Positions 2,364 to 59,698 of a DNA stretch of 64,000 nucleotides are shown here, piece by piece (positions within the stretch are counted from its first letter, which is position 1; every line of letters begins with the position of its first letter). The DNA is from an uncultured Methanosarcinales archaeon (lineage in GTDB: Archaea; Nanobdellota; Nanobdellia; Woesearchaeales; GW2011-AR9). The stretch spans positions 2,643 to 66,642 of the forward strand of contig CAZKIP010000005.1 of assembly GCA_964552945.1 (NCBI GenBank), written 5' to 3'. The notes beneath the pieces are model-generated. The model saw nothing but the letters and a program-made list of their open reading frames with translations. It had not been told where the DNA came from and ran no database searches. Both the position numbers and the translations under genes were made by a program.

Positions 2364-3499
2364 TGATTAAAGAAAACAAATGTCACTCGTACAATCTTAA
2401 AAGACTTCCCAACGGCTGTTTATCATGCATCCTTGGCCAAAAGTTAGTTATCTTTATCACTGGCATCTGCCCTAGAAAATGTTACTTCTGCCCCGTCTCA
2501 GATGATAAATTTGGTAAGGACACAGCTTACGCCAATGAAAGAAAAATAAACACCAAAGAAGATCTTTTCATAGAAGCTGAATTAATGAGAGCAAAAGGAG
2601 CTGGAATAACCGGAGGAGATCCTTTAAGCAGATTAGAAAGGAGTGTAGATTACATCAAATCTCTCAAAGAGAAGTATGGCAAAGAGTTCCACATCCATCT
2701 TTACACTTCACTTAATTTAGTTACTAAGGAAACCCTAAAAAAACTTTATGATGCTGATTTGGATGAAATTCGATTCCATTTAGATTTAGATTCAGATAAA
2801 TTATGGGAGAACATCTTACTTGCTAAAGAATTTTCTTGGGATGTTGGAGTAGAGTTACCTTTAGTCCCTACAAAAGAAAAAGAGATTAAAAAAATAATCG
2901 ATTTCATTCAAGATAAAGTTTCTTTCCTCAACCTTAACGAGCTAGAGATTGCAGACAACTCTTTATCCAAATTGGGTGAGATGGATTTCAAAGTTAAAGA
3001 CAATTTAAGTTATGCTATCAAAGATTCTTTAGAAACAGGAATTAAGTTATTAGAATACATTGAAGAGAAGAATTATCCTTTACAAGCTCATTTATGTACA
3101 GCAAAATTAAAAGATGCCGTTCAATTGACAAATAGAATTAAAAGAGAATCTGAGAATGCAAAGAAAGAATTTGATTTGGTTGATGAAGAAGGAATGTTAA
3201 TTAGAGGAGCTTTGTATTTGCAAACTTTAGCTCCTGGATTTAAATATCGAGAAAAGTTAAAAGCAGATAATTCTAAATTAATTAAAGTATTGGAACCTCT
3301 TTGTGCTAGGATAAAAAAGAAATTCAAATTGGAAGATGTTGATATTTATTTAGATAAAGAGAAACCACGAATTCTCATTTCTAAAAAGTTAGTGAAAAAG
3401 AAGAAAGCCTATTTCATCATGTTGGGATTAAAACCAGCCATTGTTACCGAGTATCCTACCGCAGACCAGTTAGAGATTGAAGTTGAATTCTTAGAGTAG
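2363..3499 (+). CDS. Radical SAM domain protein
   Basis: CPRKCYFCP CxxxCxxC motif near the N-terminus and a GGDP SAM-binding-like motif; start overlaps upstream stop (ATGA). Confidence 0.6.
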   Translation: MIKENKCHSYNLKRLPNGCLSCILGQKLVIFITGICPRKCYFCPVSDDKFGKDTAYANERKINTKEDLFIEAELMRAKGAGITGGDPLSRLERSVDYIKSLKEKYGKEFHIHLYTSLNLVTKETLKKLYDADLDEIRFHLDLDSDKLWENILLAKEFSWDVGVELPLVPTKEKEIKKIIDFIQDKVSFLNLNELEIADNSLSKLGEMDFKVKDNLSYAIKDSLETGIKLLEYIEEKNYPLQAHLCTAKLKDAVQLTNRIKRESENAKKEFDLVDEEGMLIRGALYLQTLAPGFKYREKLKADNSKLIKVLEPLCARIKKKFKLEDVDIYLDKEKPRILISKKLVKKKKAYFIMLGLKPAIVTEYPTADQLEIEVEFLE

Positions 3500-16955: not shown

Positions 16956-17059
16956 GGGCCTGTGGTGTAATCCGGTAGCGCGTCCGGCTGGCAGCCGGGA
17001 TGTTTCGGGATATTATGAGGTAAACTCTAAATACGAAAATTCAAATCCCGACAGGTCCA
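16956..17059 (+). tRNA. tRNA-Ala (GGC) with ~30-nt intron in the T-arm
   Basis: Acceptor GGGCCTG/CAGGTCC with G3:U70, D-arm GTGT/GCGC, anticodon stem TCCGG/CCGGG with loop CTGGCAG, TCGGG + insert + TTCAAAT CCCGA; TATA (TTAAATATTTAAAT) ~30 nt upstream. Confidence 0.7.
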
Positions 17060-18858: not shown

Positions 18859-19473
18859 TTACAACCTCTTAAACCTTGGAACTTTTTCTCCATTAAGTTC
18901 AACATTTTCAAAAAATGTTTCTTTCGGTTTAACCCAAAGAGGATTTTTTCCAAACTCTTCAGAATCATACAACCCTCTGTAAACAACATATTCTTCTAAA
19001 GTATCACTATGAACTCCTGAATAAATTAACTCATATTTATTTCCCTTATAATGTTGAAATTTGTTTGAAAAAGGACTATATCCTTGTTTTAATAAATTAA
19101 CAATAGGTTCAAATAAAGGAGAAGGTGCATCTTCCCATGCAAACCAAGAGAACTCTTTAGTTTTATCAGGTTCCATTATTTTTACTTCTCCTGAAGCAAT
19201 TTCTCCAATCATAAAAATAGTTATGTAATGCTTATCCTCTTTTAGAAAAAAGTCGTTGGTAAGAGTTGCAAACCGGACATTTTTAAGTTCTACATCAAAT
19301 TCTTCTTTAGTTTCTCGTTTTGCACATTCTTCAAAGGTTTCATTAAATTCTAAATGTCCTCCTGGAAATGACCAAGTTCCTTCACCATGAGCTCCAATTC
19401 GTTTCTGAAAAAGAACTTTATTATCTTTAACAATAATTACTCCCACTCCTACTTTTGGCAAATTCATAACCAT
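18859..19473 (-). CDS. NUDIX hydrolase fused to a C-terminal DUF1653 domain
   Basis: Nudix box GGHLEFNETFEECAKRETKEE; C-terminal YKGNKYELIY...HSDTLEEYVVYRGLY...LWVKP...PRF matches the DUF1653 pattern. Confidence 0.7.
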   Translation of the reverse strand: MVMNLPKVGVGVIIVKDNKVLFQKRIGAHGEGTWSFPGGHLEFNETFEECAKRETKEEFDVELKNVRFATLTNDFFLKEDKHYITIFMIGEIASGEVKIMEPDKTKEFSWFAWEDAPSPLFEPIVNLLKQGYSPFSNKFQHYKGNKYELIYSGVHSDTLEEYVVYRGLYDSEEFGKNPLWVKPKETFFENVELNGEKVPRFKRL

Positions 19474-19523
19474 AATAAAAACATTTACTATAAATTAATT
19501 TCTAAACATAAGAACATAAAAAG

Positions 19524-19937
19524 TTATTCTGCCAGTTGATAATCTTCAAGACATAAATCAAGCACAGCTTTAATTTCCTGTATGCGACGTTCAAACATAG
19601 CTTTAGGATTCCTCAAATCATCTCTTTTTAATTCTCCTGAGGAAGGAATCGCTGCAACAAAAAAATTGATTTCATTATCCAAGGCTAGTAAGGATGCAGA
19701 TAAAGAAATTAGTCTATCATTTTTTCCAACCTCTTTAATTTTCTTTAGGACTTCCGCTTTAAGAATCCCAACATCACTTCGCATTGCACTAATCCTTTCC
19801 ATAGCCGTTTGTTGTGATCCTGGTTTAAAACCATTAAATAATTCAATTAAAGAAATAAAAACATTTTTGAAGTTATCACTTATAATTTTTAATCGTGCGC
19901 GTGATCCAACAAACACCATACTATTAAGAAAAAACAT
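19524..19937 (-). CDS. Hypothetical protein (gene bounded by 29-bp perfect direct repeats)
   Basis: 137-aa helical, charged ORF; the antisense ORF 19582-20001 is S/L-rich and judged spurious. Confidence 0.35.
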   Translation of the reverse strand: MFFLNSMVFVGSRARLKIISDNFKNVFISLIELFNGFKPGSQQTAMERISAMRSDVGILKAEVLKKIKEVGKNDRLISLSASLLALDNEINFFVAAIPSSGELKRDDLRNPKAMFERRIQEIKAVLDLCLEDYQLAE

Positions 19938-19958
19938 TTACTATAAATTAATTTCTAA

Positions 19959-20881
19959 TTATAATCCTTTTTTCAAAAGTTCTCCTGCCAATTCAACTTG
20001 AACCCTACAACCAGCATAAAAAGGCATTCGGTCATGTAAACCTTTTGGAACAACATCTAAAATATCCTCTACGCCATTTGTAGCCGAACCACCAGCCCTT
20101 TCAATCAAAAAAGACATAGCATGCAACTCAAACATTGGACGTAGAGTTGCCCTCTCACTACCATCTTTCATTCTACACGTAGGATATGCAAAAATGTGAT
20201 CTCCTCTTAGTAAAGCTTGGTTAATATCTGAAACTAAACAACGTGAAAATTGATCTTTATACCCTCTCCCCCTTAAATAAGAGATAAACTTTCTATGAGG
20301 TTCTGACCAGGTAGGTTCCGCCCCGCCTGAACTTAAACGTGAAGCCACTTCTCTCATTTTTACATCTTCTTTCAAAAGAGACCAATGCCAATTAGCATCT
20401 AACAAATAGCCATTTACTTTTTCACCAATATTACAAACTAAACTTGTTGCACAGCCATAAAGAATATACATAGCTGCAACCATACTCTCTCGAGGAGTAC
20501 GGCTGTCCAATAACGGCCCTTGATGTATTGAAAATATGGAACCTATAGGTCCATTATATGGAGCGTTACTACTTCCATCTAAAGGGTCATAACAGAATAT
20601 TTTCCGGAAGAACTTACATCAACTATTGAAGGACGTTCTTCAGAAGCAAATTGTATCACACCACCACATTCTCTTAAAGAATCACTTATTCTCTCATCTG
20701 CAAATATATCTAAAGAATTTTGGTGATCTCCCGAAGTGTTTGAAGTTTCCAAAGATTCTGTTCGTCTTCCATATCTTACTTCATCAGAAATTTCATCACA
20801 AGCACCAGCAATACCCATTATTAATTCAACCAAATCTGGTTCAGTTTTATTTTGAACAAGATCCGATTTAAGGGATGGCAT
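19959..20881 (-). pseudogene. fbp: Class I fructose-1,6-bisphosphatase (Fbp), disrupted by a -1 frameshift (ORFs 20579-20881 and 19959-20510)
   Basis: N-terminal piece ends ...SGKYSV; in the -1 frame it continues CYDPLDGSSN...GYxLYGxAT...FAYP...LRPMFELHAMSFLIERAGGSATNG, all class I FBPase hallmarks; shift is at a GGAAAAT homopolymer; region visibly GC-richer than flanks. Confidence 0.7.
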
Positions 20882-20921: not shown

Positions 20922-22445
20922 CTACTTTACTTCCTCTCCCACAATACTTCTTAACATATGTCCCCCAACTTTGACTTTAATTTTCTTCTTTAAGGGGATC
21001 CTTCCTTTAACTCCAATGATTAAAGGATAAGTCCCATATTGTCTACAAAAAGTTGTTTTTCCATCATACATTTCAGTGTAAACATCTTTTAAGATAGTGC
21101 CTTCAGGTAAAATTAATTTCAACATTGGAAAATCTATTTTTTGCCTTATTTCATTCCGCCATTTCCAATAGTATTTTTTATTTTTTCTAAGGAATTTGTT
21201 TCCACCATGTTTCTCTAAGAACGTATCTGGTAACACAGCTACCTGACGAACGTTAATTCTTCTCAACAATAAACCCTCATCCATAATATTTTGTAACATT
21301 TTCATATTTATCTTATGAGTTTCTTTACTCTCATTTAATAATCCAAAAATAATGTTTATCCCTGGCAAGAATTTATGCATCCCATTCTTTCCTCTAACTG
21401 CACCATACTTATTAATAATTTGAATTGCTTTATAGCCAATCAATGGAGAAGTATTTAGTAAATTTGCTTTGACAACCTCTTTATCAAAAGATTCCACCCC
21501 AAAAGCAGCAATATTTCCTGAAGTACAATATTTCACGATAGCTTTTGTGATCTCTTCCCCTCCTGCAGCTACAACAGAATTAGGATTTACATTATCAATA
21601 TGAAGTACTTCAATCTTGGGACATTTCTTGTTAATTTGTTGCAACAATTTTATTGGCTTATCAGATGCATAAAAGTCAGCTTGTTTTCCAAGACGGAAGA
21701 ACCTTGCGCCTTTCTTGTAAAATTCTTCAACTTCTCTAAGAACGTCCTCCATCTTTCGGTTAACAAATTTATTTTTCAGAGGTTCAGTACAAAAACTACA
21801 CTTTCCGACTTTACACCCTCTTCCAGTTTCAACCTCTATAACTCTCTTATCAGGAATTTGTTTAATTATTTCAGTACTTTCTTTAATGTAATCTTCAATT
21901 TCTGCAAAAGGAGCATCATAATTTTTTACTTCATCAAAAAAGCTAAGGTCTGCTTTCTCAAAGAATTTTCCACCTTCTAATTGTGTTCCAAACACAGCCG
22001 GACCGCTCAATATTTTTGGTTTCTTGATATCTTTAAGTAAAGAAGTGATCTCTTGCAAAGTTCCAGGATGTGCTGTTAAATATTTGCCTGGAACGTGAAC
22101 TCCAAGAATAACAATGATTTTTTTTGTTTTAGAGATTATTTCTTCCGCTTTGTTATTAGTTAAATTATAAACATAAATATTTGTTTTCTCTTTCTCCGTC
22201 GGTTCCTTCACTACACCTCCCTTTTGCTTCCACAACCTTACATCATCTATTGTAAGATAAGAAATATCATTCCCTTCCTTACTCAATTTTCCAAATAAAT
22301 ATCTTGGATATGTTCCCAAATAGGGGGGTACACCTAGTCCAGAAGCTTCATCTGTGTAACAATCAATAATGGTAATGTGCATGATAGAATATAATGATTC
22401 TACTTTAAGAATGTTTGGTATAATATAGAAGAAACATAACAACAA
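20922..22445 (-). CDS. B12-binding-like/radical SAM protein (COG1032-type Fe-S oxidoreductase)
   Basis: GRGCKVGKCSFC CxxxCxxC motif preceded by a Rossmann-like IIDCYTDE N-terminal domain; start probably at internal Met (MHITIIDCY). Confidence 0.55.
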   Translation of the reverse strand: MLLCFFYIIPNILKVESLYSIMHITIIDCYTDEASGLGVPPYLGTYPRYLFGKLSKEGNDISYLTIDDVRLWKQKGGVVKEPTEKEKTNIYVYNLTNNKAEEIISKTKKIIVILGVHVPGKYLTAHPGTLQEITSLLKDIKKPKILSGPAVFGTQLEGGKFFEKADLSFFDEVKNYDAPFAEIEDYIKESTEIIKQIPDKRVIEVETGRGCKVGKCSFCTEPLKNKFVNRKMEDVLREVEEFYKKGARFFRLGKQADFYASDKPIKLLQQINKKCPKIEVLHIDNVNPNSVVAAGGEEITKAIVKYCTSGNIAAFGVESFDKEVVKANLLNTSPLIGYKAIQIINKYGAVRGKNGMHKFLPGINIIFGLLNESKETHKINMKMLQNIMDEGLLLRRINVRQVAVLPDTFLEKHGGNKFLRKNKKYYWKWRNEIRQKIDFPMLKLILPEGTILKDVYTEMYDGKTTFCRQYGTYPLIIGVKGRIPLKKKIKVKVGGHMLRSIVGEEVK

Positions 22446-23640: not shown

Positions 23641-23830
23641 AGATAACGGAAATTTTCACAATTTCCGGAATCTTTCAAAAAATCTTGTTTTTTGCTAGAT
23701 AACGGAAATCTTCTTGATTTAACGGTCTTCCAAAATCTTGTTTTTTGCTAGATAACGGAAAATATTGTATTTTCCGGGATCTTTCAAAAATGAACCATTT
23801 TTTCTAGATAGCAGAAATTTTCACAATAGC
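23641..23830. repeat. ~55-bp tandem repeat, 3.5 copies, each starting AGATAACGGAAA and containing a CGGAAA...TTTCCG-type palindrome
   Basis: Copies begin at ~23641, 23698, 23751 and 23807; lies in the divergent region between tRNA-Ile and the first surface lipoprotein gene. Confidence 0.6.
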
Positions 23831-23975: not shown

Positions 23976-25025
23976 ATGAAAAAAGTAATGATATATGGAT
24001 TGATAATAGTTTCTTTGATAGTTCTAGCTGGATGTGCTCAATACAAAGCCATCGACACTCAAAACGATGAAGATCTTAGCTTAATTGATGAAATTGCAAA
24101 AATTGAAGAAGAATTAGCTCAAGAAGAGATTAAGGAAGATACAACACCAGAAGAAACCACTGATACTGCAGAAGAAGCAGTGGATGAAACAGTAAATGAA
24201 GAAGAAGTTGTAATTCCTGATTTAGATGAAGCAGCAGTAATGAATACAGAAGCAGTAACCATCTCAGTAAAAGAAAATGAGTTAGTTAAAGTTAATGCTA
24301 AAGTTTCAGACCCTGATGAAGATCCAGTTACTTATACTTTCAGCAAACCTCTAAACAATAATGGAGAATGGAAAACCAATTATGGAGATGCAGGAGAATA
24401 CATGGTTACTTTAAAAGCTACAGATGGAAAATTAACCACCGAGAAAGTAATCAAGCTTGTAGTTGAGAGAGTGAACGTTCCTCCAGTTATCGATGGTGTT
24501 AAAGATATAACTATCCTAGAAGGAGAAACGGTTACTTTTGAACCTAAAGTAACAGACCCAAACAACGATGCCGTTACAGTTACAATCTCTGAACCATTGA
24601 AAAGTGGAACTTTTGTAACTGACCATACCAGTTTTGGTGAATACAATATTGTTGTAAGTGCTTCAGATGGAGAATTGGATACTGAAAAAACTTTCAAACT
24701 TACAGTAAACAATGTAAATGAAAAACCAGTTATCTCTGGTCTTGAAGACTTGAAGATTAAGGAAGGAGACGTTGTTAAACTTAAACCAACCGTAACTGAC
24801 TTGGATGAAGACCCAATCACTTTAACTATAAGTGAACCGGTTGGCGACGATGGAATCTGGGCAACATCTTACACAGATAATGGGGAATATGTTATCACTG
24901 TTACTGCAGATGATGGACAAGACAAAATTGTTCAAAAAGTAACTATAACAATTGAGGATATTAACAAAGCTCCAGAAATTGTAGATATTTCCTTAGGACC
25001 AAATAGTCCTGCTGTGAGTAGTTAA
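23976..25025 (+). CDS. Cell-surface lipoprotein with three cadherin/Ig-like repeat domains
   Basis: Lipobox signal MKKVMIYGLIIVSLIVLAGC; Glu-rich linker; ~95-aa repeats sharing DPDEDPVTYTF...W.T.YGDAGEY.V...A.DG; strong GGGGGTG SD. Confidence 0.6.
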   Translation: MKKVMIYGLIIVSLIVLAGCAQYKAIDTQNDEDLSLIDEIAKIEEELAQEEIKEDTTPEETTDTAEEAVDETVNEEEVVIPDLDEAAVMNTEAVTISVKENELVKVNAKVSDPDEDPVTYTFSKPLNNNGEWKTNYGDAGEYMVTLKATDGKLTTEKVIKLVVERVNVPPVIDGVKDITILEGETVTFEPKVTDPNNDAVTVTISEPLKSGTFVTDHTSFGEYNIVVSASDGELDTEKTFKLTVNNVNEKPVISGLEDLKIKEGDVVKLKPTVTDLDEDPITLTISEPVGDDGIWATSYTDNGEYVITVTADDGQDKIVQKVTITIEDINKAPEIVDISLGPNSPAVSS

Positions 25026-25081: not shown

Positions 25082-27439
25082 ATGAAACATAAAATTGTTA
25101 AACTAGTTTTAGGTGTGGTAATCCTAATTTTAATTCTACAAACCGTTTTTGCCGCCACAAGAGTTTTTCAAGTACAAGAAACAGATTTTGTGAAAATAAA
25201 TGCTAAAGCGATAGACCCAGATTTGGATAAAGTAACTTACCAATTTGGAGAACCACTGGATCAAGATGGCGAATGGCAAACAACCTATGGAGATGCGGGA
25301 GAGTATGAAATTGATGTTAAGGCATCTGATGGAAAAAATGAAACTATCAAAAAAATAAAATTGGTAGTTACTAAAAGAAATCAAGCACCCTATGTTAAAG
25401 AAAAAAAGTTAGTGGCAAAAGAATCTAAAACAGTTAATTTAAAAGAAGCTATCGTTGACCCAGATGGAGATGTTTTAACTTACACATTTAAAGCTCCTTT
25501 TAACGAAAAAGGCGTTTGGCAAACTAATTTTAACGATGCGGGAGAACACACCGCTTCATTTACAGTAACTGATGGAGAATTCTTAATAGAAGCAAAGGTA
25601 AACGTCGTAATTGAGGATAAAAATCAACCCCCTTTCATTGACAACATTTTCTCTGAAGAGGATAAATTAGAGTTTAATGAAGGTGAAGAGTTAAATTTTT
25701 CTGTAAAAGTAAGAGACATAGATAGTGAAAATATTGATTATATTTGGAAATTGGATGGGGCAAAAATTAGTGAAGATAATGAAGGAGAACATGAATTTGA
25801 TTACGATTCTTCCGGTGAACACCAATTGGAACTTCAGGTTAGTGATGGAGAAAACAATATAGAAAGAAGTTGGAAAATTGAAATTGAAAACACCAATAGA
25901 AAACCTGCATTAAGTCTAGAACCAATAACCGTTAATGAAGGAGAATTAGTAAAGTTAATTCTTCCCGGTAAAGATCAAGATGGAGATTCCCTTACCTATG
26001 AACTAGAAAAACCTTTAGATAGTAATGGAAAATGGAAAACTGATTTTGAAGACGCGGGAAAATATTTTGCCGAAGTTGTTGCAGATGATGGGGAATATAA
26101 ATCTCAAACAGAAGTTGAAATAAATGTAGTTGATGTTGACAGAATCCCTACTTTAAACGTACCAACCAGGCTAGAAGTGAAAGAAGGAGAGAAACTTTCT
26201 TGGACAATTGATACTACAGACCCAGATAATGATGTCCTCGACATTAAAGTAATCAATGCACCAGAAGGTTCAATTCTTAATAAGAAAGTCTTTTCATGGG
26301 AACCTGATTTCTCAGCGATAAAAAGAAAGGGTGGATTTGTGAGTAATGTTTTAAATTCGTTAAATTTAGAAAGGTTTTTTCTAAAAATGAAAGTTATCCC
26401 TCTAAAAATTAAAGTATGTGGAAAAAGTTTATGTAATAATAAAGAGTTAGAGTTGGTTGTCTACAATGTAAATCGTCCTCCAGTTATGCAAGGACAAAAA
26501 AACTATACAATTCAAGAAACTGAAGAATTGACAATTGTGCCTTCTGCAATAGACCCAGACGGAGATATTGTTAAGTATGCTTTCTCATCACCAGTTCAAA
26601 AAAGAAGTGGTAAATGGAAAACTAGTTTTGATGACGAAGGGATTTATGATATCTATGTATCTGCCACTGATGGGAGATTTACTGACACATTACCTTTTGT
26701 TGTGAATGTAAAGAAAAAGAATCGTGGGCCTTCATTAAATGTTGATAAAGATGAATTTGTTATTTTAGAAGGTAAAAAGCTATCGTTCAAAGTTACCGCT
26801 TCAGATCCTGATGAAGACAATTTGAATATTGAATTAGAAAATCTTCCTCCTGGAGCTTCGTTTAAAGATGAAACATTTATTTGGACTCCTTCAAAAGAAT
26901 TTGTTAAGAATAAAAGTTCTGGAACCATAAACAAAATATTACAAAAATCTTCATATCTTATCAAAAAATTTAGTGATGACGAAAAAACGCATTGGTTAAA
27001 ATTTTCTGCAGACGATGGAGAAACAAAAACAATTCATCCAGTAAAAGTTATTGTTAAAAACAAAAATCAGGCACCTAAGATCATTGATTATCTTCCTATG
27101 AATAAAACACTTTTTACAGAAGTTAACAAACCTTTAATTTTCCACGTTACAGCAACCGATTCTGATAACGATAAGTTAAGTTACGAATGGAGTTTTGATT
27201 TTGGACAGCAAAAAGTTAGAGGGACTGATACTATTGAAAGAACTTTCCTTACTCCTGGAGAAAAAAAGGTCAAAGTCAAAGTAACTGACGGACTAGAAAC
27301 AGTTGAAAAAGAATGGATGGTTTCTGTACAAGAAGTTCTCTATCCTACTCCAGTTATAATTTCAAATCCTACTCAAAATGTACCTCAAGCACTATCTCCT
27401 CCTGAAACTGAAACTTTTAGGGTAATTGTTATTGAATAG
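25082..27439 (+). CDS. Cell-surface protein with ~8 cadherin/Ig-like repeat domains (paralog of upstream gene)
   Basis: Signal peptide; repeated DPD.D.LTY.F..P....G.W.T.F.DAG.Y motif units along 785 aa. Confidence 0.6.
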   Translation: MKHKIVKLVLGVVILILILQTVFAATRVFQVQETDFVKINAKAIDPDLDKVTYQFGEPLDQDGEWQTTYGDAGEYEIDVKASDGKNETIKKIKLVVTKRNQAPYVKEKKLVAKESKTVNLKEAIVDPDGDVLTYTFKAPFNEKGVWQTNFNDAGEHTASFTVTDGEFLIEAKVNVVIEDKNQPPFIDNIFSEEDKLEFNEGEELNFSVKVRDIDSENIDYIWKLDGAKISEDNEGEHEFDYDSSGEHQLELQVSDGENNIERSWKIEIENTNRKPALSLEPITVNEGELVKLILPGKDQDGDSLTYELEKPLDSNGKWKTDFEDAGKYFAEVVADDGEYKSQTEVEINVVDVDRIPTLNVPTRLEVKEGEKLSWTIDTTDPDNDVLDIKVINAPEGSILNKKVFSWEPDFSAIKRKGGFVSNVLNSLNLERFFLKMKVIPLKIKVCGKSLCNNKELELVVYNVNRPPVMQGQKNYTIQETEELTIVPSAIDPDGDIVKYAFSSPVQKRSGKWKTSFDDEGIYDIYVSATDGRFTDTLPFVVNVKKKNRGPSLNVDKDEFVILEGKKLSFKVTASDPDEDNLNIELENLPPGASFKDETFIWTPSKEFVKNKSSGTINKILQKSSYLIKKFSDDEKTHWLKFSADDGETKTIHPVKVIVKNKNQAPKIIDYLPMNKTLFTEVNKPLIFHVTATDSDNDKLSYEWSFDFGQQKVRGTDTIERTFLTPGEKKVKVKVTDGLETVEKEWMVSVQEVLYPTPVIISNPTQNVPQALSPPETETFRVIVIE

Positions 27440-27515: not shown

Positions 27516-29060
27516 ATGGATCAAACTATCAAATTAGCTTTAGATACCATTAAAATAAATAAACAAGCTATTATTTTTAACCCTAGCAGAGCTAGTGCAG
27601 AGAAAACTGCGGAAGACATTTCTAAACTAACAGATTTATTTCATCCAGAACTTGAGAAAGGAGTTCTGCATTCTATATCAAGCCCTACTAAACAATGTAG
27701 GAGGTTATCTAATTGTGTAAAAAAAGGAATCGCTTTCCATCATTCTGGGTTAACAAGTAAACAAAAAGAAATTGTTGAAGAATCTTTCAAAGAAGGTAAA
27801 ATAAAAATTATATCTGCTACACCTACTTTAGCAGCAGGACTTAGCATGCCTGCTTTCAGAGTAATTATCAAATCTCTTAAAAGATACTCTGGCAGCTGGG
27901 GAATGAATTGGATTCCTGTTTTAGAATATTTACAAATGGCAGGGAGAGCAGGAAGGCCGGAGTATGAAGCTTTTGGAGAATCCATTGTTATAGCAAAAAC
28001 TGAACCTGAGAGAGATGAGATTGTTGAAAGATACATCAAAGGTGTGCCAGAAGACATTTATTCCAAGTTAGCAGCAGAACCGATCTTAAGAACCTACCTT
28101 CTTTCATTAATTTCTTCTGGATTAATCCGTGATGAAGAAAGCATGAACAATTTTTTCAGTAAAACCTTTTGGGCTCACCAGTTTAAAGACATGAATAAGT
28201 TGCAACAGATTATGGAAAAGATGATTCTTTTACTTGAAGAATGGGGATTTATTTCAATCCAAGGAAAAGAGGGAGTTAATTCAGACTTTGTAAGCGCTCA
28301 AGATCTTGACAATAAAAGTAAAAGTAACAAAACAATGAGGCCAACCCTTATTGGTAAAAGAATCTCTGAACTTTATCTTGACCCATTAACTGCAAATCAT
28401 CTTATCAATTGTTTGAAAAATTATGATGACAAAAAAGAACATTTTTCTCTATTACAAATGATTTCCCACACTTTAGAGATGAGACCTCTACTAAGAATCA
28501 AGAAAAAAGAAGAAGAAATTATTAATGAAGAGTTGACAAAAAATTATCATTTGCTTCTTGAAAAAGAACCTTCATCTTTTGATATTGAATATGATGAATT
28601 TTTCAATTCCATAAAAACCTCGCTCTTTTTTGGAGATTGGGTTGATGAAAAAAATGAAGATTACCTTTTAGAGAAATATAATGTTCGTCCAGGAGAAATT
28701 AGAAGCAAGATTGAATCTGCCAACTGGCTAATTTATGCAGCTAAAGAGTTAGCAAAAATAAATGGAGACAATTTGGTAGCACATGAATTAAGAAAACTTC
28801 GAGAGATGGTAAAAAATGGAGTTCGTGAAGAACTTCTTCCACTTCTAAAATTGAAAGGGATTGGGAGAGTTAGGGCTAGAAAACTTTTCTCTCATGGCAT
28901 GAAAGATTTAGGTCATTTGAGAAGAACAGATTTAACGTCTCTTACTCAAATTGTTGGTAAGGCCACTGCTGAAAGTGTTAAGATTCAATTGGGTGAAGAA
29001 ATAAAAGTAATTCCAAAAGGGACTAGGAAAGGTCAATTGAGCATGGAGAAATTTAAATAA
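27516..29060 (+). CDS. Hel308/Ski2-like helicase, C-terminal portion only (RecA2, winged-helix, ratchet and HhH domains; RecA1 missing)
   Basis: Begins directly with the helicase C domain (IAFHHSGL...ISATPTLAAGLSMPAFRVII...QMAGRAGRP) and ends with the GIGRVRARKL HhH domain; no Walker A/DEAH domain; own TATA (AAATATATAAAAG) ~25 nt upstream. Confidence 0.65.
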   Translation: MDQTIKLALDTIKINKQAIIFNPSRASAEKTAEDISKLTDLFHPELEKGVLHSISSPTKQCRRLSNCVKKGIAFHHSGLTSKQKEIVEESFKEGKIKIISATPTLAAGLSMPAFRVIIKSLKRYSGSWGMNWIPVLEYLQMAGRAGRPEYEAFGESIVIAKTEPERDEIVERYIKGVPEDIYSKLAAEPILRTYLLSLISSGLIRDEESMNNFFSKTFWAHQFKDMNKLQQIMEKMILLLEEWGFISIQGKEGVNSDFVSAQDLDNKSKSNKTMRPTLIGKRISELYLDPLTANHLINCLKNYDDKKEHFSLLQMISHTLEMRPLLRIKKKEEEIINEELTKNYHLLLEKEPSSFDIEYDEFFNSIKTSLFFGDWVDEKNEDYLLEKYNVRPGEIRSKIESANWLIYAAKELAKINGDNLVAHELRKLREMVKNGVREELLPLLKLKGIGRVRARKLFSHGMKDLGHLRRTDLTSLTQIVGKATAESVKIQLGEEIKVIPKGTRKGQLSMEKFK

Positions 29061-36234: not shown

Positions 36235-36507
36235 ATGGAGCAAAAAGAGGAGAAACTATCACGAGCGATTAGTGCCTATTCTAGAAGACAAATTCTTAGA
36301 CTTCTTGCAGATAAAGAATTAACCGTAAAAGAAATTGCTGCTAAGACCAATCTTTCTGTTTCCCTTGCCTCAAGACATCTAAAATTACTATATGATCTTG
36401 GTTTTCTAACTGTAAGAAAAGAATATCCTTTCAAATATTATTCTCTTAAGATAAAAGAAATGAAAAGCTTGCTTGAAATGTACGATAAGGTAATTAAAAA
36501 AATATGA
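36235..36507 (+). CDS. ArsR-family winged-helix transcriptional regulator
   Basis: RRQILRLLADKELTVKEIAAKTNLSVSLASRHLKLL HTH typical of ArsR/SmtB; stop overlaps the next start (ATGA). Confidence 0.6.
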   Translation: MEQKEEKLSRAISAYSRRQILRLLADKELTVKEIAAKTNLSVSLASRHLKLLYDLGFLTVRKEYPFKYYSLKIKEMKSLLEMYDKVIKKI

Positions 36508-39500
36508 AAAGAAAAATAAGAAGTAAAAAAGCGGAGAAATGCCTGCACAAGGAAAGAGTTATCCTAGTAATGTTACTCTCAGCAGTACTGCTATTCTTCT
36601 TAGCAAGTAGTCCAAACTTTGGAACTAAAACTATTGTCGATTCGGTAGATTATTTTAATCAAGTTAGCTTATTTGATGGGAGTTCTATAACAGGAGCAGC
36701 CGTTATTGGCATATCTAGTACCGACAATGACGATGATTTAGGAACTTTTGTTGATGATTTTGCTGATGGGATAAGTAATACTTCAAGATGGTTCAATCAT
36801 ACAACTAGAATGACCATACATCATGAAAATGAATTGATGAGATTTAATGCCTCATTAGCTTCAACTGAAGGAAACGCATCAATTATAACTATAGAGAATT
36901 TGTCTATGCATTCATTTAATATAACTGCAAATGTAACCTTACAAAATACATCAGATAGTCTTTCTACTGATGCATTGGCAACAATAGAATTAAGTTTATT
37001 TAACCAAACTAACCTTTCTCAAACCACAACATGTTCAGTAAATTTAGAAGAATCCTCAGGTGGAGCATATTATTTATATTTCGGAAACTCCACCACAAGT
37101 AATCCACCTCCAACAATTATTAATGCAGAAATGGCAAATATTGGAGATAATTTGACAGGACTCCTGAGAATGGAGTATATTAATGACACTGAAACAATCA
37201 ATTGTACTTTTACCACTGGATTTGATTCTTACTCTGTCAAAGGTGTTACTAAAGACATAGGACAAGATTTTGGAGCAGGCATTTTATCACAATTAACTAC
37301 TCAAGGAGGTGCCGCTTCAGGTGATGTGAATGCCACAATTGCGTCATTTAATTATAGTTTGGCTCCAGTTGCAAGTGCAAATAACGAACCTACCTCTACC
37401 ATCCTTCTAAACACAACAGATTTAACAGCAAACGATACCAATCAAAACTTAACAGCTTATTCAGAGACAAGTGATTTAGACAATGATGATGTATTTGTTG
37501 TTTACAATTGGTTATTAAATGGTTCATCTGTGATGGTCCTAAACATGCCTTTCTTGCCAAATGACAATAATGAAAGTGCTTCTACCCACAACTATGCTCT
37601 TGGTGATAATGGAAATAATACAGGAGGGGCATCATGGAACTCCACAGGAGGTTTTGATTTCAATGGCAGCTATGAATTTGATAGTATCGATGATTATCTT
37701 TCTTTAGAAAATTCCGGCCAATATGAACCTACCATGAATTTTAGCATAGAAGCATGGGTTTATGTAAAAGGCAGTGGAAACAACGGAGGACAAAATGGAA
37801 TCGTTAATAAAGACGGAGGGTTCAACGATGGTTTTAATTTTGCGATTGGTGATTCTTCTGCCCCAACAGTAAATTTTGGAACTGGAGATTCTGGAGCCAG
37901 TGACATTGAAACAATCACAGAATTAAATCTCAACGAATGGACCCATGTTGTTGCTTCATATAATGGAAGTAATACTTCAATTTACATCAATGGCGCGTTA
38001 GACTTTGTTGGTACAAGAACTGGTGCTTTAGCCTATAGTACAGGCGATTTAGAAATAGGAAGAAATAGGGATACACCACCCGGACAGGAAGGATATTTCA
38101 ATGGTTCCATTGACAACGTTAGAATTTGGAATATAACTTTAACCCCTGAACAAATTTCTGCTCTTTACAAAAATAGAACAGACCTAATCGTTTCACAAGA
38201 ATTAAGTGTAGGAGATAATTGGACAGTAGATGTAACTCCAAACGATGGAGTTCTTGATGGAGCAATTAATAGATCTAACGATTTGTTGGTGTTAGATGTT
38301 ACTGCACCAGCAGCCAACAATGACCCTACCTCTACCATCCTTCTAAACACAACAGATTTAACTAAAAATGATACCAATCAAAACTTAACAGCTTATGTAG
38401 ACACAAGTGATTTAGATGCTGATACAGTAAACGTTGTTTACAACTGGTTATTAAATGGTTCATCTGTGATGGTCCTAAATATGCCTTTCCTACCAAATGA
38501 TGGAAATGAAACTGCTTCTACCCACAACTATGCTCTTGGAGATAATGGAAATGTTACTGGTGCTACATGGAATTCTACAGGTGGTTTTGATTTCAATGGC
38601 AGTTATGAATTTGATAGTGTTGATGATTACATTTCTATAAGAGATAGAAGTGAGTTTGAATTAACCTCAAATATAACAATAGAAGCGTGGTTCTATTTGA
38701 AAGGCAATGGGAGCACAGGGATTAGTGGTCTTTTAAATAAAGATGGTGGGTTTGGCAATGGATTTGATATTGAATTAGGAACTGATGATCTTTTGAATGT
38801 AGCTTTCAACACCGGAGATTTTGGATCAACAACTTTAGAAACTGCTGCAAACGCAATTTCTCTTAACAGATGGACCCATTTGGTAATAATGTATAATGGA
38901 AGCAATACTTCTATTTATATTGATGGCGCTTTAAATGTAGTTGGTACGAAAACTGGCGCATTAACTTACAGCACTGGAGATTTAGAGATAGGTAGGGCAA
39001 TTAACTCCAGTGGACAAGAGGGTTATTTCAATGGTTCCATAGATAACGTTAGAATTTGGAATAGAACTTTAACCCCTGAACAAATTTCTGCACTCTACAA
39101 AAACAGGACAGATTTAATAGTTTCTCAAGAATTGAATGTAGGAGATAATTGGACAGTAGATGTAACTCCAAACGATGGAGTTCTTGATGGAGCAATTAAT
39201 AGATCTAACGATTTGTTGGTGTTAGACATAGTTGCAGCTGCTCCTAGTTGTGGAACTCTTACTTCTAATACTACTTTAACAGAGGACATTAATTCTACTG
39301 AAACATGTTTCACTATTGGTGCTCATGGAATTACTTTAGATTGTGATAATTATTTAATCAACTATTCCACAGAAGGTAGCGGAAATGGAATAGATAATAC
39401 AGGATATCACAACGTAACAATTAAAGATTGTAGGATTGAACAATACGGAAATACAGGAGAAGCAATTCTATGGGATGACGCTAGAAGTGGTAAATTAATT

Positions 39501-42425
39501 AACAACACCATTATAACTTACACTGCAACATCGCCAGCAATTTTTATACCTCCAAATTCCAATAATACTTATATCACAAAAAACAACCTAACTACAAAAG
39601 ATAACTCTTATGCCCTAGATGTTGTTGGAAGAGACAACAACATTACAAATAATACCTTTTTATCAACTAATTCAGCTGGGATAAGAGTTGTTTATGCTCA
39701 AGGGGTGAAGAATTTATTCAAAAACAATTTCATCCAAGGATATCCTTTTGGTTCCATTGGAATTGATGTAAACAACCTCAATAATACTTTTTTAAACAAT
39801 ACAATAATCATGAATAGTTCTTCATCATGGGGAGTTCGTATTACAGATGGTAACTACACTCATCTTGAAAACAATACAATAAATGTAACAGGAGCAACAA
39901 GCTATGGGATATATCTTTCTGATAGTTCTGAAAGAAACTCTTTAATTAACAATCTTCTAGAAACTAATTCCTCAGATTCATTTTCAATTTTCGATGAAAC
40001 TGATGACAATAAAATAAATTATATGAGTTACATTAACGCATCAAGCAAAATTGAATGGGTGGATAATGGATCAAGAAGTTTCTTAAGAAATTTAACTTTT
40101 AATGGGACCATTGGTCCAAATACAAACATTTATTTAGGAAATGGAACCGTAGCTGTCGATACATCGGCATTTGACAATGGAAAAATTAATTCTACTGTCA
40201 ACATTACTTTTTATGGATTAGATTTAGAATTTGCAGATGCAGTTATCAAAATCCATAGTTTTAGCACAGATGGTGTAACCATAGATAGTTCAGGTTCAGA
40301 TTGTGTAGGAGATTCTTGTGAGATTATTAGTTACACTGGAGGGACTTTAAGATTCAATAGTACATCATTGGGAAGTTTATTTGCAAACAACTCAGAGGAT
40401 TTAACTCCACCAAATGTAACCATCCTAACTCCAATAAACACAAGTAATTTTTCAAAAACATCTAGTAATCAAACATTTAACGTAAGTATTAATGAGGCTA
40501 ATATTTATGGGGTATTATTCATTTTTGATAATGGTTCTGGAGTAGATTTCAACATTACAGCAAATAACAATTCGGGATATTGGGCTGCACCATACAACGT
40601 TTCCACTTTGGCAGAAGGAACACAAACAGTTAGAGTGTCTGCAAATGATACGGCAGGAAACATAAATAGTACACAACAGGTTACAATTACAACAGATTAT
40701 ACAGCCCCAAATGTAACTATCATCTCACCAACTAACAGAAGCAATTACTCCTTTACTTCAAGCAATCAAACGTTCAACACATCAGTATTTGATGCAAACA
40801 TCAAAACAGTCTGGTTCTCATTTGATAATGGAACGGGAACAGATTTTAACATTACAGCAAATAATAACTCTGGGTATTGGGCTGCACCATACAATGTATC
40901 AACACTAGCAGAAGGAACACAAACAATAACGATTATAGCAAACGATTCAGCAGGAAATGTAAACACAACACAAAGCATTACAATAACAACTGATTACACT
41001 GTACCTGTAGTTAACATCACATTCCCAACTAACGGAACCAATTTCAGCATTGGATCTTATAATCAAACTTTCAATGTAAGTATCCAAGAAAGAGACATAG
41101 GAACTGTCTTATTTAATTTTGATAATTCATCCGGAACAGGATTCAACCTTACTCCAACAAATCAATCAGGATATTGGGTAGCTAGTTACAATGTTTCAAA
41201 GCTAGCAAATGGAACACACCTATTAACAATTTTAGTTAACGACACTGTAAACAATAAAAATAATACGCAAACAATAAATTTCACTTTTGATAATAGAACA
41301 ATGCCTGTCGCTCCTGCCCCTGCAGGTGCAGGAAATACAGGAAGTAGTGGAGGAGGAGGTTCAAGTTCCTCCTCTGATTCAGGAGGGGGAGGGTCCCTTC
41401 CAATAAAAGAACCCGCTCCTAAATCGGTTGCCCCTGAAGATTTTGAAAAATCAGAAAAAGATGTTGTAGAAGAAAAAGTAGAAAAAGAAGATTCAAGTGA
41501 ACAAGTAGATTCAAAAGGAGTAGCCGCAACTACTATAAAAGCCCTTAAATCTGCCAAGTCTACTTTTAGCGCAACTGGGAAAGCATTTTTCTCTGGAGAA
41601 TTTTTATTAGATATGTCTGGGGTTTGGATTCTATTAATCTCCCTAATGTTACTTTCTGTATTGTTATTATTTGTTACCTTTAGACACAAGAAGCGCTTTA
41701 TCCCTTATTATGTTTCAGATTATCCCTCTCCAGAATTACAAGTTGAAAGAACCAGCCATTTACGCCAATTAAGATCACAAGTAAGAAATGCGGGTGCTGG
41801 AGTTAAGAGAGAAATTAGTTCTTTATTAGCTAAAGGAAGAATTCATCAAACTTCTTTGAAATGGCTACAGAATTGGGTCGAAACGATGCAAGGCAAAGGA
41901 GATTCGGAAGCTAAAATAAAGAGCTTATTACAACATAATCCTAATGTGACCCCTCAGATGATTAAAGTGGTTTTAGATAGAATAAAAGCTAAAAAGTTAT
42001 TGCAGAAGAAATATTCTCTATCCTTAAAAGAATTAGAGAAAATTGAAAAAGTGGTACTTAAGTTAGTTAAAAAAGGAAAAACCATCTCTGAGATAAAATC
42101 TATCTTCTCTGAAAATGGGTGGGATTCTTCAATCCTAGGTCCTTTTATTGAAGCATATTCCAAACTAGTACGTAAAAGAAAATTTGTTGCTTATGGTGCA
42201 CTTCAAATTTCACAAAAATTAGCAAGAAAAATGGTCAAAAAAACTCACAATTTATCTTCCATCGAGATAAAACAATTAGAATCTTTCATTGACGATTGTT
42301 ATAATAGAAACATTCCTATGGGGGAAGTAGTTGATGGTTTGGTTGAAAGTGGATGGACTTACAAGGAGATTGATTCATTGGTTAGAATACGTTATCGGAT
42401 GGGCCTTTATAATGTTGTCCTATGA
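36504..42425 (+). CDS. Giant (1973 aa) cell-surface protein: signal/TM, two LamG-like domains, right-handed beta-helix region, three Ig-like repeats, G/S/P linker, TM anchor and ~270-aa cytoplasmic tail; extremely rich in N-x-S/T sequons
   Basis: LamG signatures (W.HV...YNG.N.SIYING...GYFNGSIDNVRIWN) twice; NNTI/NNLT beta-helix repeats; three ~95-aa repeats (P.NVTI..P.N.SN.S....NQTFN ... SGYWAAPYNVSTLAEGTQT); C-terminal TM VWILLISLMLLSVLLLFVTF. Confidence 0.7.
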   Translation: MKRKIRSKKAEKCLHKERVILVMLLSAVLLFFLASSPNFGTKTIVDSVDYFNQVSLFDGSSITGAAVIGISSTDNDDDLGTFVDDFADGISNTSRWFNHTTRMTIHHENELMRFNASLASTEGNASIITIENLSMHSFNITANVTLQNTSDSLSTDALATIELSLFNQTNLSQTTTCSVNLEESSGGAYYLYFGNSTTSNPPPTIINAEMANIGDNLTGLLRMEYINDTETINCTFTTGFDSYSVKGVTKDIGQDFGAGILSQLTTQGGAASGDVNATIASFNYSLAPVASANNEPTSTILLNTTDLTANDTNQNLTAYSETSDLDNDDVFVVYNWLLNGSSVMVLNMPFLPNDNNESASTHNYALGDNGNNTGGASWNSTGGFDFNGSYEFDSIDDYLSLENSGQYEPTMNFSIEAWVYVKGSGNNGGQNGIVNKDGGFNDGFNFAIGDSSAPTVNFGTGDSGASDIETITELNLNEWTHVVASYNGSNTSIYINGALDFVGTRTGALAYSTGDLEIGRNRDTPPGQEGYFNGSIDNVRIWNITLTPEQISALYKNRTDLIVSQELSVGDNWTVDVTPNDGVLDGAINRSNDLLVLDVTAPAANNDPTSTILLNTTDLTKNDTNQNLTAYVDTSDLDADTVNVVYNWLLNGSSVMVLNMPFLPNDGNETASTHNYALGDNGNVTGATWNSTGGFDFNGSYEFDSVDDYISIRDRSEFELTSNITIEAWFYLKGNGSTGISGLLNKDGGFGNGFDIELGTDDLLNVAFNTGDFGSTTLETAANAISLNRWTHLVIMYNGSNTSIYIDGALNVVGTKTGALTYSTGDLEIGRAINSSGQEGYFNGSIDNVRIWNRTLTPEQISALYKNRTDLIVSQELNVGDNWTVDVTPNDGVLDGAINRSNDLLVLDIVAAAPSCGTLTSNTTLTEDINSTETCFTIGAHGITLDCDNYLINYSTEGSGNGIDNTGYHNVTIKDCRIEQYGNTGEAILWDDARSGKLINNTIITYTATSPAIFIPPNSNNTYITKNNLTTKDNSYALDVVGRDNNITNNTFLSTNSAGIRVVYAQGVKNLFKNNFIQGYPFGSIGIDVNNLNNTFLNNTIIMNSSSSWGVRITDGNYTHLENNTINVTGATSYGIYLSDSSERNSLINNLLETNSSDSFSIFDETDDNKINYMSYINASSKIEWVDNGSRSFLRNLTFNGTIGPNTNIYLGNGTVAVDTSAFDNGKINSTVNITFYGLDLEFADAVIKIHSFSTDGVTIDSSGSDCVGDSCEIISYTGGTLRFNSTSLGSLFANNSEDLTPPNVTILTPINTSNFSKTSSNQTFNVSINEANIYGVLFIFDNGSGVDFNITANNNSGYWAAPYNVSTLAEGTQTVRVSANDTAGNINSTQQVTITTDYTAPNVTIISPTNRSNYSFTSSNQTFNTSVFDANIKTVWFSFDNGTGTDFNITANNNSGYWAAPYNVSTLAEGTQTITIIANDSAGNVNTTQSITITTDYTVPVVNITFPTNGTNFSIGSYNQTFNVSIQERDIGTVLFNFDNSSGTGFNLTPTNQSGYWVASYNVSKLANGTHLLTILVNDTVNNKNNTQTINFTFDNRTMPVAPAPAGAGNTGSSGGGGSSSSSDSGGGGSLPIKEPAPKSVAPEDFEKSEKDVVEEKVEKEDSSEQVDSKGVAATTIKALKSAKSTFSATGKAFFSGEFLLDMSGVWILLISLMLLSVLLLFVTFRHKKRFIPYYVSDYPSPELQVERTSHLRQLRSQVRNAGAGVKREISSLLAKGRIHQTSLKWLQNWVETMQGKGDSEAKIKSLLQHNPNVTPQMIKVVLDRIKAKKLLQKKYSLSLKELEKIEKVVLKLVKKGKTISEIKSIFSENGWDSSILGPFIEAYSKLVRKRKFVAYGALQISQKLARKMVKKTHNLSSIEIKQLESFIDDCYNRNIPMGEVVDGLVESGWTYKEIDSLVRIRYRMGLYNVVL
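37385..39236 (+). repeat. Near-identical ~930-bp tandem duplication inside the giant surface-protein gene (copy 1 ~37385-38315, copy 2 ~38323-39236)
   Basis: Long stretches identical between copies (e.g. 38190-38300 vs 39128-39236); also shown by identical antisense ORF peptides at 38165-38377 and 39125-39313. Confidence 0.75.
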
Positions 42426-57898: not shown

Positions 57899-59698
57899 TT
57901 AATCAAATAATGTTTTTTGCCTTTCTCCTTTACTTTCTTCTTCATTCTCTTCTTCAGCATTTTTAGTTTCTTCTTTTTCTACTTCCTTCTCTACTTTTTC
58001 ATCATTTTTGACTTCTTTGTTTTCATTTTCCTTAGGTTCTTCTTTTCCAATTTTTGCTAATTCCGGATCATAATCTGGATTATTTACACCAATTTCTTCC
58101 AGCTCTCCTCTTGTGTGTTCTAAAATTTCACCCAGATTGTCTTCAATTATTTTTTTATTAATTTCATCAAATCCAATTATTTCTTTCAATGCATCTGCAA
58201 CATGGGGGATGTATTTTTCAATGTAACTTCTTTTCTTAGCTTCATCTTTTATCCTTTTCTTTTTATTAACAAAACTTGCAAGTTTACGCCCACACTCTTG
58301 CAATGATAATTTTATTTCTTTAATTATTCCATTGTAATGGGCCAAAGCTTCTTTAGATTCTGAAGTAAAAGGGACCCACACAGAAGTCATATGGATGACG
58401 ATGGTACAAGGACCTACAGGAATAGAACTTCTACTTTGTTGTAAACCATAATTTCTCCAGGAGGTATTTTGAACAGAATTGGTTATTGCACAAGCCCCTT
58501 GTTGGTATAGTAGAGGAACTCTATTTGCAAAACGCATAATTCTAACAGTGGAATCTGCAGATTGTTCTCCACCATAAGCCATTGCAGTTTCAATAACAAA
58601 AGGATTCCCTCTGTAAACACTAGCCGGTCTTGTGGCTGAACAATAGAACTCTGCATTTATTTCTTTCCTTAAACCTTTTTCTAACAATTCTGCGCCAATG
58701 GGGGAAATACAATCTGTAGGCGGAGAAATTATTTTTGTTTTTTGAATGCCTTTATACAAATTCTCTGCCATATCTCTCCCAATTTTTTTAGGTTTTGTTT
58801 TTGGCAATAAAGAAGAATTAGCACAAATTTCTTTAGCTGTACCTGCCCCTACTCTTACAAACTCGCTAGTTAGAAATTGTTGAAGAGTTTTTGCTGGAGT
58901 TGTTTCCAACATTTTGATAAGCCTTCCCAGTTCTATTCCATAAGGGTGGGGTTTAATCTCTTTAGGTTCTGGAGGTAAATCTTCGCTTGCTCTTGGAAAA
59001 ATAAATTGTTTTGCTTCAGGATTCGTATAAATTACTGTACAATGAGGATTTACAATAGCTGTTTGTTTAAGATATTCATCAACGGATTGTCTTCCTTTGT
59101 TGTAACTTCCTTCCATGTCAATCTCAATTTTGGTTCCGTGATCTTTTTCTTCCCATTCAATTTCTTCTTCTCCTAACAATTGAGGGTTGTTAGTTTGAGT
59201 GTTAATTTTTATCTTAACTAAGTTGGCCATTTCAGATTTACCAGTTTTAGAAACAATTGTGGCTGGTTTACCTGTAGTGAGTTGTCCATATAAAACGGCT
59301 GCCGAGATACCTATCCCTTGTTGTCCTCTGGTTGCAGATAGTTTATGGAATTTACTCCCATAAAGAAGCTTAGCAAAAATTTTTGGAATTTGTTTTTTAA
59401 TTATCCCTGGCCCGTTATCTTCTATGATTACCCTAAACCTACTATCACTTAGTTGAATAAGCTCCACATTTATCTCTGGCAAAATTCGTGCTTCTTCACA
59501 TGCATCTAGTGCATTGTCAACTGCTTCTTTCACAGCTGTCATCAAAGCTCTTCTTGGATTGTCAAAGCCTAATAAATGTCTGTTCTTTTCAAAGAATTCG
59601 GCAATTGATATCTCTCGATGTTTCTTTGCTAGTTCCTGAGCTGTCTTTTTAACCATTTGAAAAATGTAAAATTTAGTCTTTTTATAAGGTTTACTCAA
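57899..59698 (-). CDS. top6B: DNA topoisomerase VI subunit B (GHKL ATPase)
   Basis: Bergerat-fold motifs ELVDNALDA-like ([12 protein letters not shown]), [19 protein letters not shown]; transducer domain; Glu/Lys-rich tail. Confidence 0.85.

Follow-up and report, generated by a model that had tools for sequence, protein, structure and literature searches.

On the minus strand of the window (the whole 64,000-nucleotide stretch of DNA that was analysed) lie two ORFs that the first-pass annotation had read as the two parts of a single class I fructose-1,6-bisphosphatase (FBPase) gene, the downstream one being shifted by -1 with respect to the upstream one (Table 1). The frames are indeed so disposed, and the fused ORFs match both Pfam halves of the family well above the gathering cut-offs (PF00316, 91.9 bits against 34.8; PF18913, 91.1 bits against 27), as well as finding solved FBPases with an E value of 1e-32 in a search of PDB sequences. 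The top NCBIfam matches of the FBPase-like protein were likewise all class 1 FBPase models, the best of them (NF006783) scoring 211 bits against an equivalog cut-off of 521 and ten out of ten falling below their own cut-offs. It is a score above the equivalog cut-off that licenses a functional name. Judged by these matches, 20579–20881 and 19959–20510 together make up one gene of the class I FBPase family.

The upstream ORF (protein P0122) holds the equivalents of pig N64, G67, D68 and D74 and of the S-E-E metal-site motif (E97/E98), and stops at a TAG (20579–20581) directly after its tail, MTL. In the downstream frame the first canonical start is a TTG at 20510, from which an ORF of 183 aa runs on the minus strand (19959–20510), while translation from an ATG at 20483 yields the database protein P0001 (174 aa). 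In the allele carried by the window, the DPLDGSSN catalytic codons (pig D118–N125) lie 3' of the frameshift and 5' of any ATG, GTG or TTG, and so are absent from both of the listed ORFs.

In what kind of organism is this gene found? The window encodes Hef, NOG1, the topoisomerase VI B subunit, a Hel308-type helicase and a SUF system, together with a tRNA of 104 nt, which is long enough for an intron. For the topoisomerase VI B subunit more than 100 relatives exist at 74–86% identity, the named ones being Woesearchaeota/Nanoarchaeota, and on these gene matches the host is a Woesearchaeota/Nanoarchaeota (DPANN) archaeon, of the small, symbiotic type. Family and host matches thus agree with the earlier statement that an archaeon carries a gene of the class I FBPase family. 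Within this one window there is a contrast between the topoisomerase subunit, with relatives at 74–86%, and the FBPase, whose homologues reach at most 41%.

Table 1. Features of the FBPase locus, in window coordinates (L001, scaffold with the intact allele; L098, SAMN11854485 scaffold_1607; L093 and L097, related metagenome contigs)
Feature	Position	Strand	Remarks
Radical-SAM gene (rSAM), conserved upstream neighbour and synteny anchor	20922..22382	minus	Relatives at 63–80% identity
Upstream FBPase ORF, 100 aa	20579..20881	minus	Homologue residues 1–97 plus out-of-frame tail MTL
A4 run	20600..20603	minus	A4 in intact and deleted alleles alike
4-bp deletion junction	20590..20593	minus	Alignment to L001; Logan contig end at 20592; edge of the gap in L098
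Rest of FBPase frame	19959..20592	minus	-1 frame relative to upstream ORF; Pfam FBPase_C
DPLDGSSN catalytic codons (pig D118–N125)	20565..20588	minus	In neither of the listed ORFs
Duplication copy A	19930..19990	.	Last ~35 nt of FBPase CDS plus 29-nt spacer with TTTATA
Hypothetical 137-aa ORF between FBPase and NUDIX genes	19524..19937	minus	Absent from relatives
Duplication copy B	19477..19534	.	End of 137-aa ORF plus spacer upstream of NUDIX gene
NUDIX/DUF1653 gene, conserved downstream neighbour	18859..19473	minus	Directly after rSAM in L093 and L097

The lesion, and an intact allele from the same population

An uninterrupted version of the gene is encoded on the ENA scaffold SUTE22-1_SAMN10231923_METAG-scaffold_627 (72,868 bp; L001 in what follows). 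Its product, P0121 (308 aa), falls in the same 90% cluster of a large protein database as the two fragments from the window, P0001 and P0122, which are placed there on an NCBI contig of 95,979 bp. Exact-product look-ups with P0001, the 100-aa and 183-aa ORFs and the topoisomerase VI B product (P0123) gave no record. A segment of L001 of 20,927 bp is 99.97% identical to window positions 9959–30881, with two differences in all: a 4-bp gap in the FBPase gene, which is the sole indel, and an adjacent-base CC/GG dinucleotide at 27582–27583, which changes residue 23 of a helicase (P23 or G23). Where the intact allele reads GGAAAATATTCTGTTGCTTATGACCC, the window has GGAAAATATTCTG----TTATGACCC, and the deleted allele read across the junction is ...ATTCTGTTATGACC.... 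The missing bases are TTGC, or equally TGCT or GCTT, the placement being ambiguous because of the flanking TT microhomology.

It had been proposed that the frame shifts within the homopolymer of GGAAAAT. This placement has to be given up: the A4 run is the same in both alleles, and the lesion is a non-homopolymer 4-bp deletion (20590–20593) situated 7 nt downstream of the run, at a site where the alignment to L001 reveals neither a homopolymer nor a tandem repeat. A homopolymer sequencing error, which would require a length difference within a mononucleotide run, is ruled out, since there is none. The cysteine in the motif first reported for this region (GKY..C.DPLDGSSN) likewise arose because the change to the -1 frame was placed too soon; in the intact protein the sequence is GKYSVAYDPLDGSSN. 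What does stand is the more general claim that the gene is disrupted in the window sequence, its frame being broken there and intact in L001 and P0121. The microhomology deletion shifts the frame right before the DPLDGSSN codons, and the N-terminal product of the window allele ends after 100 residues. As DPLDGSSN is in neither of the ORFs that begin at a canonical start, the window allele is treated here as enzymatically null, a status that is predicted from its reading frames.

Fold and active site of the intact protein

The AlphaFold2 model of P0121 is of high confidence (pLDDT 91.0, pTM 0.91), and its top Foldseek matches are the pig, human and Escherichia coli FBPases, with TM-scores of 0.90–0.91 (4HE0, 2F3B, 1CNQ, 2QVR). 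The protein is thereby predicted to have the complete FBPase fold. It has in common with class I FBPases (PF00316 plus PF18913; PRK09293; 1CNQ, 1EYI, 2QVR) both domains as well as the predicted fold, at only 25–29% identity to the solved enzymes and no more than 41% to any known sequence. Kept from the pig enzyme are N64, D68, D74, E97, E98, D118, L120, D121, G122-S123-S124, Y264, R276 and E280. The set of metal, catalytic and 1-phosphate residues of P0121 is complete (D52, D58, E81, E82, D100, L102, D103, G104–S106, R249, E253); we take the corresponding pig residues (D68, D74, E97, E98, D118, L120, D121, G122–S124, R276 and E280) to be the metal-binding and catalytic residues and the loop that holds the 1-phosphate.

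Elsewhere the protein is very divergent. In a comparison with 119 homologues, 53 columns were conserved at 90% or more; it departs from the consensus at nine of these (the median sequence does so at none), and four of its substitutions (T116S, R212Q, G230H and K247T) are in columns invariant in 119/119 of the homologues. By alignment, with rabbit and pig numbering, Q212 corresponds to pig R243, F213 to Y244 and T247 to K274. These pig residues, along with Y264, we take to be ligands of the 6-phosphate of the substrate; of this set, P0121 keeps only the tyrosine (Y234, pig Y264), the equivalents of R243, Y244 and K274 all having been replaced. Two arginines, R215 and R245, appear in P0121 near the lost basic residues, and might compensate for them.

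From this pattern we infer that P0121 may be a sugar-phosphate 1-phosphatase that depends on Mg and recognises the distal phosphate less well or in a different way, rather than a canonical gluconeogenic FBPase. The altered substrate site could also consist of compensated changes, with function neither lost nor changed. An equally simple reading of the active-site changes is that constraint has been relaxed on the way to gene loss, and this fits the presence of a segregating null allele.

Base composition, relatives and origin

The gene had been described as GC-richer than its flanks and therefore as a probable recent acquisition from a bacterium. As far as raw GC content is concerned the description holds: the value for the intact gene is 0.374, whereas the window's genes average 0.324 (37% versus 32%), and the C-terminal ORF, at 0.386, is the highest of all the ORFs in the window. 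It does not extend to codon usage, which is host-like. The excess is found in the first two codon positions (GC1 0.489; GC2 0.437, the maximum in the window), while GC3, at 0.197 against a window mean of 0.226 +/- 0.048, shows no excess over the genes of the window, and the Karlin codon-usage distance (B) of 0.281 ranks the gene 26th of 55, or 10th of 24 among those of similar length. Glycine, alanine, arginine and proline make up 26.6% of the FBPase-like protein (median 19%). An excess confined to positions 1 and 2 comes from the amino acids that the gene encodes, not from foreign codon usage, and with synonymous sites as AT-rich as those of the host the compositional argument for recent transfer fails; on GC3 and the Karlin rank (26/55), recent transfer deduced from composition is ruled out. 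The case is a caution that the high GC of a single gene may be misread as foreign codon usage, when a split by codon position removes the signal.

Nor does homology point to a recent donor. Among 5.8 billion proteins searched, the best homologue from outside the gene's own population is 41% identical, and no candidate donor lineage has a close homologue. The best matches in named genomes (35–41% identity) are in Geobacteraceae, Desulfuromonadales and Syntrophales, and archaeal matches (Altiarchaeales, Methanomicrobiales and Halorubrum) are at 33–35%; a scan of GTDB genome contigs found relatives at 32–41% identity only. The best-scoring NCBIfam model for the protein is that of the 'short' class I FBPase subfamily (NF006783, PRK09293.2-4), members of which come from Geobacterales, Desulfuromonadales, Syntrophales, Peribacteria, Altiarchaeales, Methanomicrobiales and haloarchaea. 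Indels and motifs of this subfamily recur in the protein: the loop that follows helix 1 is short, S-x-G-G replaces S-x-N-E-G, D-I-N-Q is present, and I-F-x-Y-P is preceded by one additional residue. In a neighbour-joining tree (numpy Kimura distances, 100 bootstraps; a rough tree, not a maximum-likelihood one), the protein was placed inside the clade of 'short' class I FBPases (bootstrap support 99%), in which Desulfobacterota, Peribacteria, Altiarchaeales, Methanomicrobiales and haloarchaea are mixed. It differs from the rest of the subfamily in its deviation at 9/53 conserved columns and in having the longest terminal branch of the tree (0.64, the others being at most 0.47). Its attachment to haloarchaeal sequences within the clade (56% support) is probably a case of long-branch attraction.

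With a best homologue at 41%, the longest branch and a clade of mixed bacterial and archaeal membership, the idea of a recent acquisition from a bacterium is not sustained. The gene is a lineage-specific acquisition that is not demonstrably either recent or bacterial. Either the acquisition is old enough for the synonymous sites to have come to match those of the host, or the donor was equally AT-rich; native-like codon usage fits an old transfer and an AT-rich donor alike, and so cannot separate the two.

In published surveys FBPase is recorded for only a minority of DPANN genomes, six of those assembled in one study (PMC8091004), and 'fbp, fructose-1,6-bisphosphatase I' is among the genes mapped in Woesearchaeota MAGs (PMC11606122). 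The patchy presence of the gene described here fits this sporadic occurrence of fbp in DPANN archaea and Woesearchaeota, those records being KEGG-level annotations. The two papers describe neither this orphan sequence nor its altered 6-phosphate site, nor a segregating null allele (PMC8091004; PMC11606122).

A variable slot between conserved neighbours

The genes on either side of the FBPase provide a means of looking at the same position in related organisms. Five related metagenome contigs (L093–L097), in which the rSAM protein is 63–80% identical to that of the window, made up the set for synteny. In two of them (L093 and L097), the NUDIX gene follows 20–50 nt after rSAM; in L095, small ORFs of 73 and 109 aa come between the two; in L096, four unrelated genes do so; and L094 provided a match to rSAM only. 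A tblastn search found no match to FBPase in any of the five rSAM loci. In the window, the slot between rSAM and NUDIX is filled by FBPase and by the 137-aa ORF, for which no family match was found. As the slot in relatives is empty or has other cargo, and there is no FBPase there, the gene is a lineage-specific insert at a variable position. By this comparison it is an accessory gene, outside the conserved gene set of the lineage. At the same locus some 65 nt are directly duplicated in degenerate form, and the copies, A and B, start 453 nt apart (Table 1).

Is the deletion a real variant?

Alleles were compared across five independent assemblies from one population, the material being assembled contigs and not reads. 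Outside the deletion site they are 100% identical to the window, apart from the CC/GG dinucleotide of L001. At the site, the SAMN10231923 scaffold is intact and the window has the 4-bp deletion. A Logan contig of 6,310 bp, SRR8062318_27521, matches the window throughout (100% identity), its end falling precisely at window position 20592, which is the first base of TTATGACC and the first base that the intact and deleted alleles have in common; this is where a contig would be expected to end if broken by a de Bruijn bubble. A second Logan contig, SRR9166051_83616, has its first base 10 nt within the junction rather than at it. The fifth assembly, scaffold_1607 of SAMN11854485 (L098; 38,266 bp), has ...TATTC at the site, in the arrangement GGAAAATATTC-CACTATGCCA-N10-TTATGACCC, and over 13.5 kb agrees with the window at every other position. 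The right edge of its gap (N10) is base 20592, and its left edge enters a third sequence, the passage from the left flank into the new sequence being ...AATATTCCACTATGCCA.... There are therefore three states between the flanks GGAAAATATTC and TTATGACCC: TGTTGC, TG, and CACTATGCCA plus gap. The 10-mer CACTATGCCA is confined to L098; a search of the window and of all the fetched loci found it at no other place. A simple two-allele model does not account for this third state. The helicase residue mentioned above is P23 both in the window and in scaffold_1607, and G23 in the contig with the intact allele, which points to two strain backgrounds. A pattern scan of JGI metagenome contigs gave no match to either allele, and no papers were found in a literature search on SAMN10231922, SAMN10231923, SAMN10231893, SRR8062318 and SRR9166051.

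The first-pass annotation had left the choice between an error and pseudogenisation. That choice is now narrowed, in that intact and broken versions have both been assembled and the site is unstable in at least three assemblies; real polymorphism is favoured, though unproven. The chief alternative is that the gene is intact in all cells, and that the deletion was made by the assembler or polisher at a difficult site. This would account for the recovery of an intact version from the same population, for the scaffold gap (N10) with which a third data set also breaks at the site, and for the breaks in two Logan contigs at the site or no more than 10 nt away, and a wrong consensus in the window might itself be the outcome of a site that is multi-allelic or difficult to assemble. 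On the other hand, graph assemblers work from k-mers that are present in reads, and a de Bruijn assembler following them would not invent a clean 4-bp deletion; the loss of four bases outside any homopolymer or tandem repeat is atypical of sequencing error; one Logan contig ends on the very base at which a bubble formed by the two alleles, intact and deleted, would be expected to break it; and the broken or unstable state is linked to helicase P23, as against G23, which argues for distinct strains. Taking these points together, we consider an assembly or consensus artefact somewhat unlikely, and a real variant the favoured and likely explanation of the deletion. The coexistence of the two alleles, which is read from the break points of the assemblies and from the two assembled versions, is likewise favoured, and mis-assembly would also fit these data. 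With intact and broken versions whose backgrounds show a single further difference, the variation would be a strain-level polymorphism, in which decay of the FBPase gene may be under way in part of the population.

Other accounts of the junction have less to recommend them. Could a slip at GGAAAAT, either as a homopolymer error or as a programmed -1 ribosomal frameshift, restore a full-length protein? The net frame change is indeed -1, and a lysine tRNA in the A site might conceivably move its pairing from one AAA to the AAA that overlaps it in GGA-AAA. Yet the run is A4 in the intact allele as well, the sequence (C-GGA-AAA-T) is not a slippery heptamer of the X-XXY-YYZ type because the base before it is C, the 101 nt around the site and 3' of it are no more stably folded than shuffled sequence (z = -0.44), and the product of the slip, GKIFCYDPLDG, would be one residue short of the true GKYSVAYDPLDG and would lack the conserved Y-S-V. 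As an in-frame allele exists, recoding is not needed. With no heptamer, no structure and the nearest relative in frame, programmed -1 frameshifting is ruled out, and the slip in either form is scarcely credible. The site might instead be a recurrent target of insertion or replacement, by a mobile element or through templated rearrangement, with the deletion as a scar of excision or repair. Three different sequences between identical flanks (GGAAAATATTC and TTATGACCC), in a gene that occupies a variable insertion slot and has the ~65-nt duplication at an adjacent junction, are suggestive of this; but the third state is known for 10 nt only, its 10-mer (CACTATGCCA) is absent from the rest of the window and from the fetched loci, there is no transposase, integrase or terminal repeat nearby, and no target-site duplication is visible, so we think such a history very improbable. 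A further reading, which concerns the intact allele, is that it has been neofunctionalised, with a rebuilt distal-phosphate pocket (R243Q, Y244F and K274T in pig numbering, and new arginines at 215 and 245), and acts on a different sugar phosphate in a DPANN archaeon of reduced metabolism, the junction being, as a separate matter, a multi-allelic hot spot (intact, 4-bp deletion, and insertion or replacement) rather than the site of a single deletion; this we regard as doubtful.

The reading preferred here, to which we give a probability of about 0.68, is of a loss-of-function allele of a very divergent gene of the class I FBPase family in a DPANN archaeon, the allele being polymorphic among strains and the gene a lineage-specific acquisition.

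What the locus means for the organism

The deletion is probably a real variant, and the whole probably an ordinary strain-level knockout of an accessory, strongly divergent gene in a known family. Genome reduction is known in DPANN lineages, and the gene turnover seen here is consistent with it and would not surprise a specialist. For the physiology of this Woesearchaeon, the gene should not be counted as evidence for gluconeogenesis, because the window allele is predicted to be null and the intact allele is without two invariant basic residues and far below the cut-offs for naming. Its interest would lie rather in accessory-gene turnover within a DPANN population, where a single locus may show a gene inserted at a variable position, strongly diverged, and assembled both as a null and as an intact version.

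Other features of the window

The tRNA listed in the table, which is absent from ARAGORN output, is long enough to contain an intron, and it fits an archaeal host. The 56-nt tandem repeat is intergenic and lies upstream of the two large surface-protein genes, and a further tandem repeat (297 nt, 1.9 copies, 40524-41074) is found inside the giant ORF. This same DPANN window encodes both a DNA gyrase A subunit of bacterial type and an archaeal topoisomerase VI B subunit.

Coordinates of features in the window
Feature	Position	Strand	Details
tRNA	16956-17059	+	104 nt; Rfam, 36.1 bits
Degenerate direct duplication	19477-19534 and 19930-19990		~65 nt
Tandem repeat	23641-23827		56-nt unit, 3.4 copies, 71% match
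Large surface-protein genes (two)	23976-25025 and 25082-27439		PKD/Cadherin-like domains
Hel308-like ORF	27516-29060	+	514 aa
Giant ORF	36504-42425	+	1,973 aa
DNA gyrase A subunit	42571-45033	+	bacterial-type
Topoisomerase VI B subunit	57899-59698	-	archaeal

Variation within the population

The same-population scaffold L098 (SAMN11854485 scaffold_1607) carries, at 3070-3089 (corresponding to window ~20593), the sequence TATTC-CACTATGCCA-N10-TTATGACCC at the site of the FBPase deletion. This is a third state of the same junction; neither the rest of the window nor any other fetched locus contains its 10-mer. Two haplotypes are marked by a CC/GG dinucleotide variant at 27582-27583 in the Hel308-like ORF, which specifies Pro23 in the window and L098 but Gly23 in L001, the scaffold with the intact FBPase allele. 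As this ORF opens directly with a Helicase_C-type motif and no match to a DEAD/RecA1 domain was found within it, it may encode only part of a split or truncated helicase.

The interval between the rSAM and NUDIX genes

In the window, the interval between the radical-SAM (rSAM) and NUDIX genes holds FBPase and a 137-aa ORF, and the direct duplication lies around the latter. Its two copies, whose starts are 453 nt apart, match over 35 nt at 94% identity and a further 20 nt at 75%. The duplicated unit comprises the final ~35 nt of the FBPase reading frame together with a TTTATA-containing spacer of 29 nt, and its second copy is found where the 137-aa ORF ends, immediately upstream of NUDIX. The 137-aa ORF appears to have been inserted later, duplicating the junction between FBPase and NUDIX. 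The metagenome contig L095, the closest relative, has a pair of short ORFs (73 aa and 109 aa) in place of FBPase in this interval (759-1306). The 109-aa ORF has an N-terminus that appears, by eye, zinc-finger-like; the pair may be a toxin-antitoxin module. The interval between rSAM and NUDIX is a variable insertion site.
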